Sequence record: NC_070869.1
Origin: Escherichia phage vB_EcoP_SP5M
DNA length: 64,000 nt
Strand: one strand, 5' to 3'
The position numbers were made by a program, and so were the translations under genes. The notes beneath the pieces are model-generated. The model was given only the letters and a program-made list of their open reading frames with translations. It made no database searches and was not told the origin of the DNA. The first letter of the stretch is position 1. The number at the start of each line of letters is the position of its first letter. Positions 35,652 to 35,927 of this stretch are shown here, piece after piece.

Positions 35652-35927
35652 ATTCAAAGTAGCACTCGTTCATACTTCCCGGTATTTAAAGACACATTCT
35701 TGTGTGAGTGCTACTTTGAGTTGGTAAAACCAAATAAAAGTCGCCAGGTACTTATGGCAAACGGGTAGTAACGAACTAGTCATTCGTCAAACGCCCACCC
35801 AATTATGAGTCAGCAAGAACGCCTTCACTTAAACTTAAACAAAAAAGCTTAACGCAATAATTATGTAGGGGTATGTAAGGATTGCGAAGAAGGAGCCAGT
35901 TAGAGCCTGGCATGACTCACCTATTAA

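Follow-up and report, generated by a model that had tools for sequence, protein, structure and literature searches.

A conserved long stem at the CCA end of a tRNA-like module in N4-like phages, with an exchangeable interior and a candidate role in RNA processing

The 64-kb stretch (64,000 nt) of Escherichia phage vB_EcoP_SP5M analyzed here (NC_070869.1; hereafter the window) comes from an N4-like coliphage of the genus Gamaleyavirus and carries an inverted repeat made of two 12-mers, AAAGTAGCACTC (35656-35667) and GAGTGCTACTTT (35706-35717), which lie 38 nt apart as first reported in an initial annotation. Judged from the sequence, this repeat is best taken as the helix (P1) that closes a small, previously unannotated RNA module; in N4-like phages, such modules lie directly behind the CCA ends of tRNAs and tRNA-like genes. 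Comparison with relatives indicates that the helix is selected for pairing and excludes chance as its origin. As to its role, we tentatively propose that P1 may be a double-strand processing and insulating element of a polycistronic tRNA-like transcript, and a candidate target of RNase III.

The closing helix and its conservation

The uninterrupted Watson-Crick run of the repeat comprises 14 bp (35654-35667 with 35706-35719), and the whole helix comprises 20 bp (35648-35667 with 35706-35725), counting one U·G pair at 35653·35720. The 5' arm, ACCAAUUCAAAGUAGCACUC (35648..35667, + strand), is kept in all relatives examined, and the 3' arm, GAGUGCUACUUUGAGUUGGU (35706..35725, + strand), includes G35720, the sole wobble partner, opposite U35653. 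The first residues of the 5' arm are also the end of an upstream 124-nt tRNA-like module, position 35648 being its discriminator A and positions 35649-35651 its CCA. The initial annotation overlooked this start within a CCA end, as well as the family of paralogous stems and the atypically perfect pairing of the window copy described below. The minimum free energy (MFE) of segment 35640-35735 is -42.2 kcal/mol, against -16.4 +/- 3.0 for shuffled sequences (z = -8.7), and none of 200 shuffles was equally stable. The MFE fold adds four basal pairs (35643-35646 with ~35729-35732), which we left out of the helix count because they compete with the upstream acceptor stem and because the sequence they need is missing in most relatives, where the linker is different; the TAAAACC linker of the window is also found in KKP 3715.

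A 12/12 stem had been considered far beyond chance for this region. Taken alone it is not, since 0.22 such repeats with a loop of <=60 nt occur per dinucleotide-shuffled 64-kb window; a 14-bp perfect inverted repeat is expected 0.03 times per shuffled window. The only other perfect 12-bp short-loop inverted repeat of the window lies at 21060-21089, with a 6-nt loop. A permissive hairpin census of the whole window, allowing G·U pairs and one mismatch, ranks P1 as the longest stem, at 25, and returns many chance stems of 16-21 bp, which make it of no use as a significance test. The beyond-chance status of the helix rests on its full length and on its conservation, with covariation, in relatives.

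The hairpin lies mid-genome in a ~1.5-kb + strand RNA island devoid of credible open reading frames (ORFs), between the homologues of gp47 and gp48. The island is 92-97% identical to those of NAN33P5, KKP 3715, PhAPEC5 and others, and is matched by 91 GenBank phage records. We compared the homologous loci of 21 GenBank phages, nine IMG/VR contigs, N4, three Klebsiella N4-like phages and pSb-1. Within IMG/VR, an exact 20-mer search retrieved one locus and a search with the gp47 protein retrieved the nine, all from close relatives. The helix is present in every locus compared, whether from Gamaleyavirus, N4, the Klebsiella N4-like phages or pSb-1.

To count pairs, the arms of 27 distinct sequences were aligned after trimming the interiors. 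Standard pairs occupy 90.1% of the cells, versus 20-42% when the 3' arm is slid by one to three columns, and 10 of the 19 pairs have changed on both sides among these orthologues. None of 500 column shuffles matched the observed pairing, the double-change counts or the covariation score. Lack of conservation or of compensation in homologous regions had been named as the outcome that would speak against the stem; both conservation and compensation hold in at least 27 distinct relatives. The arm sequences of N4 and of the Klebsiella phages are largely different, and the helix is still kept: N4 retains the base CCAAUUC/GAAUUG under an upper stem that differs in sequence and is longer (27 bp), and the second Klebsiella hairpin has compensated positions (n = 4). 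Both arms are variant in E20 and PhAPEC5, with pairing intact.

Stem length ranges from 18 to 27 bp in relatives, with a 1x1 mismatch (A·C in coliphages, U·U in N4) that sits 8 bp above the base in most copies. The window copy is the exception, with an A-U pair at this position. Since U·U is unpaired whichever strand is read, the mismatch seems to be kept as a structural feature.

Interior types and paralogous stems

The stretch between the arms had been described as a loop. Its length of 38 nt stands, but it is a structured and exchangeable interior rather than a loop: both MFE and centroid folds predict two small hairpins, and thus a three-way junction instead of a stem with a large loop. 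In these folds the interior, or cargo (type A; 35668..35705, + strand), consists of a GUUC junction, hairpin P2, a UUAAAG junction and hairpin P3. P2 (35672-35676 with 35681-35685, + strand) is predicted to carry a UCCC loop, and P3 (35692-35696 with 35701-35705, + strand) a UUCU loop and to be directly stacked on P1. P2 is 87.5% paired across interior types A, B and C, with one A-U/G-C exchange, and P3 belongs to type A only. These three types have in common a motif derived from the alignment, YCCCGGNRUUYAAAG (35677..35691, + strand; UCCCGGUAUUUAAAG in the window), which is confined to this hairpin in the window and in all 37 loci.

Between the conserved arms, we distinguished at least five interior types, mostly without mutual sequence similarity. 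Type A (38 nt) is found in the window, KKP 3715, ST4 and phi G17, type B (41 nt) in Mimir124, PGN829.1, PBM-3, UE-S5a and Jgk1, type C (38 nt) in EC1-UPM, Uz-1, St11Ph5, ECBP1 and pSb-1, type D (84-86 nt) in NAN33P5, Bas96, F22, E20 and PD205, and type E (52 nt) in PhAPEC5 and PhAPEC7. Type D resembles a tRNA cloverleaf with one extra hairpin, and its acceptor-like stem and T arm are stacked on P1 in the predicted fold. The N4 interior, 59 nt within the longer stem, is likewise tRNA-like, its T arm immediately preceding the 3' arm. The RNAalifold consensus of the interior retained P1 alone, the interior folds differing between types. We rejected the idea that the types are mutual inversions, only a 10-nt T-arm-like stretch being common to type D and the reverse-complemented type E. 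Interior types and the modules on either side of the hairpin are freely reassorted among relatives, and 17 BLAST records match up to and including the 5' arm only.

P1 is not the only stem of its kind. The paralogous long-stem element H3 (35237..35358, + strand; z = -4.6) is built of 7 bp, a 1x1 mismatch, 10 bp and an 86-nt branched interior. Its 3' arm (CAGUGUACUCCCCGAUAG) is similar to that of P1 in relatives (CAGUGCUACUCUGAAUUGG), and it has the 3'-arm box CAGUG(C/U).ACUC in common with P1. H3 arms vary with compensation in relatives (CUAUCGGAGAG/CUCCCCGAUAG versus CUAUCAAUGAG/CUCUUUGAUAG), and the mismatch is U·U in some variants. Relatives contain further members of the family, such as GGUAAGAGCAUUGGG...UCCAGUGCUCUUUCC, and an upper-stem box, GCAYUG/CAGUGC, is conserved and common to several of the paralogous long stems.

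The position next to a CCA end also recurs. In the N4 locus, long hairpins begin at, or 2 nt past, three CCA ends: after tRNA-Thr (locus positions 1405-1498), after a mini tRNA-like module (1636-1748) and after tRNA-Pro (1836-1919). In phi G17, BaqKoxi, K60PH164C1 and PD205, the hairpin is preceded by a 7-bp hairpin ending in (A/G)CCA. What recurs is thus an NCCA-terminated RNA and, behind it, a long stem with its interior.

The RNA island and its neighbours

The hairpin had been placed between tRNA-like elements, and this is correct, with the 124-nt tRNA-like module on one side (up to 35651) and a tRNA-like gene on the other (from 35928). The 124-nt module (35528..35651, + strand) has the acceptor stem UACCAGU/ACUGGUA, the T arm GGAGGUUCGAAUCCUUC and a 3' ACCA, with acceptor stem and T arm both formed in the centroid fold. 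A 66-nt mini tRNA-like module (35460..35525, + strand) has a 7-bp acceptor, UCCGGUG/CGCCGGA, one internal hairpin, the T arm CUGGUUCGAGUCCAG and a 3' ACCA; its T arm apparently matches that of E. coli tRNA-Asn. Both modules combine a 7-bp acceptor starting with U1-A72, a canonical T loop and an encoded ACCA, lack a normal anticodon arm, and were not called as tRNAs by ARAGORN or Rfam. In N4 and the Klebsiella phages, it is the mini module that precedes the orthologous hairpin.

Downstream of the hairpin, ARAGORN and Rfam (42.5 bits) detect the tRNA-like gene, whose anticodon is not determinable (35928-36000, + strand), and both also detect a tRNA-Ile with the unusual anticodon AAU (36010-36086, + strand). 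The annotation of this pair (35928-36086) varies among relatives, which label it tRNA-OTHER, Xle, Thr or Cys. The orientation of the two genes identifies the + strand as the RNA-coding strand of the island. In most relatives, a conserved A/U-rich linker, (GG)AAGAAUUA(U), separates the 3' arm from a module beginning with G; the window and KKP 3715 have the linker UAAAACCAAAUAAAAG in its place. A similar junction, AUUAU|G, is found before tRNA-Ile and before other modules. The island is closed by an intrinsic terminator (36319..36350, + strand), a 13-bp stem followed by TTTTTATTT, which is annotated as a terminator in PhAPEC5 and PhAPEC7.

Upstream of the mini module lies a 60-nt block (35396..35454, + strand) that includes the hairpin GCCAGG-UGGAAUC-CCUGGC and has no Rfam match. 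Copies with 87-92% identity occur in N4, in unrelated phages (Salmonella 9NA, Shigella DS8, several Klebsiella siphoviruses) and in prophages of 15 E. coli genomes. The block of DS8 and that of the E. coli PT62 prophage each form part of a ~0.8-kb ORF-free unit with its own sigma-70-type promoter and terminator, and a long hairpin of the P1 family comes after the block in DS8, phi_KPN_H2 and PT62. Island modules are present or absent independently among relatives, and their order differs: Kpn16-P2 has the 124-nt module, a hairpin, the block, the mini module and a hairpin, and the window has the block, the mini module, the 124-nt module and the hairpin.

The genes upstream of the island are homologues of N4 gp45 (SSB), gp46 (RuvC-like) and gp47, all on the + strand. 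Directly downstream, also on the + strand, are genes for a protein of the N4 gp49/Sf6 gp66 family (36514-36906) and for a protein with a Tad2-like (Thoeris anti-defence 2) domain (37272-37787; E = 7e-23). The homologue of the former in Mimir124 was labelled anti-CRISPR by an automatic pipeline. Further elements were seen in and around the island. A hairpin of 18-21 bp with a 4-8 nt loop (35021-35071; AGGCUAUAUCCCAAAGGU...AUCUUUGGGAUAAGGCCU) is near-invariant in most Gamaleyavirus loci examined, and a group I intron above the Rfam threshold (31341-32095, + strand; 58.3 bits) lies upstream of the SSB gene. The 1.5-kb gp47-gp48 gap of the N4 RefSeq record (NC_008720, 32113-33631) is unannotated; ARAGORN predicts tRNAs for Asn, Ser, Thr and Pro in it. 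Spurious small ORFs, or incorrect labels such as 'tail spike protein' or 'RIIA', occupy the island in several relatives.

Most relatives carry an additional feature in the same island. In 27 of the 37 loci, AAAU is followed by GCA AAC GAU GAU GUU GUU CUG AUG GCG GCG UAA, which encodes ANDDVVLMAA (for example at 1089-1125, 1187-1223 and 981-1017 of three of these loci); ANEEAYLMVA is a further common variant. The SsrA tag of E. coli, encoded by its transfer-messenger RNA (tmRNA), is ANDENYALAA. The frame is kept through synonymous changes, the paired alanine codons being GCG GCG, GCA GCC or GCU GCU and the leucine codon CUG or UUG. Rfam models of permuted tmRNA and beta-tmRNA match it below threshold (21-34 and 13-21 bits, respectively), ARAGORN reports no tmRNA in the relatives' islands, and no canonical alanine-type tRNA-like domain was identified in them. 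Literature searches on phage tmRNA and tag peptides returned nothing relevant. The frame is absent from the window and from NAN33P5.

A candidate processing stem and its alternatives

Several known classes of element were considered for the hairpin and set aside. It is not an intrinsic terminator, as had been noted: the interior is 38 nt long, the stem is followed by UAAAACCAAAUAAAAG with no U-run (T-run in the DNA), and the terminator scan does not list it. ARAGORN and Rfam give no tRNA (RF00005) on 35648-35725, even at E <= 5, and Rfam 15, in gathering and E-value modes, assigns no family to the hairpin of the window or of its relatives, the sole overlap being a microRNA model at chance level (18-22 bits versus a gathering threshold of 89). 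Matches to YrlA (RF02553) of 19-22 bits (gathering threshold 69) lie on the tRNA pair and not on the hairpin. As for a standard or permuted tmRNA, ARAGORN finds none in the window, the tag AAATGCAAACGA has no match there even with two mismatches, and the hairpin is not part of the relatives' tag-like frame, which sits elsewhere in the island and scores below threshold. The promoter hairpins of the N4 virion RNA polymerase have a 5-7 bp stem and a 3-nt loop and lie in the early region of the genome; a 20-bp stem with a 38-nt interior at mid-genome does not fit. A host repeat or miniature inverted-repeat element was rejected, since 5,426 complete E. coli genomes gave no match to the hairpin and matched only the 60-nt block; the hairpin occurs once per phage at this locus, besides its paralogues in the same island. 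A CRISPR-repeat mimic, the a1/a2 stem of a retron and an invertase site were set aside on inspection of the sequence and its gene neighbourhood, with no dedicated test; in that inspection no repeat similarity, reverse transcriptase or invertase gene was noticed, and the segment seems too short for inversion.

The initial annotation offered an RNase III site, a small structured RNA or a protein-binding element. That the structure is selected is borne out, and sequence tools do not settle the choice among the three. In the processing model that we tentatively favour, host RNase III would cut the stem of about two turns, freeing the upstream tRNA-like RNA with a short 3' trailer that exonucleases would trim to the CCA. 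The same cut would detach the downstream module and would release or discard the interior, as happens with rRNA processing stems and with the intervening sequences (IVS) of 23S rRNA. Left uncut, the helix could let each module fold on its own.

Several observations point in this direction. RNase III substrates span about two helical turns, and P1, with 20 bp, one G·U pair and a predicted -42.2 kcal/mol, falls in this size class and reaches the ~20 bp or more of near-uninterrupted double-stranded RNA expected of an RNase III stem. Selection for pairing, seen in the 27 orthologues and in N4 and Klebsiella phages with different arms, is consistent with such a role. So is the start of the helix at, or <=2 nt from, a CCA end in most contexts, as are the A/U-rich linker followed by a G-starting module and the AUUAU|G junctions, which would be expected of leader or spacer cleavage sites. 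An internal mismatch is a layout common in natural RNase III substrates, and most P1 copies and H3 have theirs 7-8 bp above the base with 10 bp above it. The tRNA-like interiors of type D and N4, with the T arm stacked on P1, suggest that P1 could act as a leader-trailer stem around an RNA. Finally, the tRNAs, the flanking genes and the terminator are all on the + strand.

Other observations weigh against the processing model. The strand is not shown by the helix itself: the mean folding energies of the two strands are equal, and the + strand has 39 A·C mismatches versus 18 G·U pairs. Selection on DNA or on the opposite strand is therefore compatible with the stem alone, and the + strand assignment of the helix rests on context. 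In PhAPEC7 and PD205, a variant 3' arm faces a standard 5' arm and two to four pairs of the lower stem are broken, which suggests recombination within the element and indicates that it can do without full pairing. The stem of pSb-1 and of DS8-type loci is preceded by the 60-nt block instead of a CCA end. The shared box GCAYUG/CAGUGC suggests sequence-specific recognition, which RNase III does not need, and the published in vivo rules for the E. coli enzyme offer no sequence consensus that could be scored. Literature searches on N4-like phage RNAs and N4 transcriptomes gave nothing relevant on the region.

Known systems offer partial parallels. RNase III stems are found as leader-trailer stems in rRNA operons, in the IVS of enterobacterial 23S rRNA and at the early-RNA sites of phage T7. 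Like these, P1 is about two turns long, often has an internal mismatch, encloses a variable or dispensable interior and lies in a polycistronic stable-RNA transcript beside tRNAs. The 23S rRNA IVS, which are excised by RNase III, occur sporadically and in variable types among close relatives, and the interior types of P1 are scattered in the same way. Unlike those stems, P1 abuts a CCA end, interrupts no rRNA helix and belongs to a family with a conserved upper-stem box and some tRNA-like interiors. The tRNA cluster of phage T4 contains an RNase III site and encodes species 1 and 2 (rnaC/rnaD), structured non-tRNA RNAs of ~100 nt that are transcribed and processed together with the tRNAs. The hairpin is likewise phage-encoded, structured, non-tRNA and located beside tRNAs, but showed no sequence or Rfam relationship with the T4 RNAs, which are not described as a conserved stem with exchangeable interiors. 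In the tRNA-miRNA units of murid herpesvirus 68 and in MALAT1-mascRNA, eukaryotic systems that depend on tRNase Z and RNA interference, a tRNA-like element is similarly followed by a long hairpin whose ends are set by tRNA-processing enzymes; this is an analogy only, and we know of nothing comparable in E. coli phages. The long closing stem of type D relatives bears a tRNA-like domain, as in YrlA, but the Ro-binding helix sequence and an rsr gene are absent and the tRNA-like part is not permuted.

The main rival to processing is that the hairpin is itself a stable functional RNA of ~80 nt (up to ~130 nt in relatives), a doubtful but real possibility. The stem would guard it against exonucleases and present the variable interior, the tRNA-like modules would provide RNase P and 3'-end punctuation, and the interiors would be binding surfaces, such as decoys or sponges for host proteins or defence nucleases. 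This would account for constant arms around at least five interior types that reassort independently of the flanks, for the structured interiors (two small hairpins in the window, tRNA-like in type D and N4), for the strictly conserved motif of types A, B and C, found nowhere else, and for the pairing of P2 with its one compensatory exchange. The upper-stem sequence box common to the paralogues and the anti-defence genes just downstream (Tad2-like, 37272-37787) also agree with it. Interior folds are not kept between types, RNAalifold retaining P1 only, and the cassette-like variation could equally be neutral spacer turnover between recombination-prone arms. That the helix is instead a strut, or a site for a double-stranded RNA-binding protein, in one large, uncleaved island RNA comparable to GOLLD or ROOL appears distinctly unlikely. 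Like those RNAs, the island is phage-borne, long (1.5 kb), ORF-free, highly structured and associated with tRNAs; the 60-nt block together with an H2-type long hairpin is found again, as one unit with promoter and terminator, in unrelated phages and prophages, and several long stems have the GCAYUG/CAGUGC box. Yet module order and presence vary between relatives, which is hard to square with one tertiary fold, and no large-RNA family of Rfam matches.

An element acting as DNA, either a recombination or cassette-exchange junction or a cruciform, kept because modules shuffle there, would fit the breakpoints at the arms (the 17 records matching only through the 5' arm), the recombinant look of the mismatched arm alleles of PhAPEC7 and PD205, the lack of an RNA-type G·U bias in the strand test and a RuvC-like resolvase gene 1.7 kb upstream. 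Homology-driven exchange does not predict that N4, the Klebsiella phages and the paralogues keep the helix by double-sided changes, and the U·U mismatch of N4 and some H3 variants, unpaired on both strands, is structural. Moreover, the element lies within a tRNA transcription unit, exactly at CCA ends, and is unlike the virion-polymerase promoter hairpins of N4, so we judge a DNA-level role quite improbable. Still harder to credit is a decaying, functionless relic of a tRNA-like gene with an extended acceptor stem, hitch-hiking in a dispensable region. The interiors of type D and N4 are still tRNA-like, types A, B and C look reduced, with UUYAAAG as a T-loop-like remnant, and the island contains several degenerate tRNA-like modules; against this, the arms keep 90% pairing with compensation across genera, and no examined locus of Gamaleyavirus, N4 or the Klebsiella N4-like phages lacks the element.

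A broader and rather unlikely reading is that the whole gp47-gp48 gap is a modular RNA toolkit, in which tRNA-like punctuation, long stems acting as sockets for exchangeable RNA cassettes and, in most relatives, a tmRNA-like tag module alongside would jointly counter host attack on tRNA, mRNA or translation. This would fit the anti-defence genes next door, and the window hairpin, with its type A interior, would represent a single allele of a diversifying RNA cassette.

The gp47-gp48 gap of N4, a classic model phage, is shown here to have an organised RNA architecture, in which each tRNA-like module precedes a conserved long stem whose interior is exchangeable and some parts are common to unrelated phages and prophages. 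The tmRNA-like tag frame seen in relatives offers a further, separate lead. Should the stems prove to be processing sites, they would provide a defined model for the maturation of polycistronic tRNA-like RNAs in phages; the interiors, if functional, would represent a new class of diversifying phage small RNAs.

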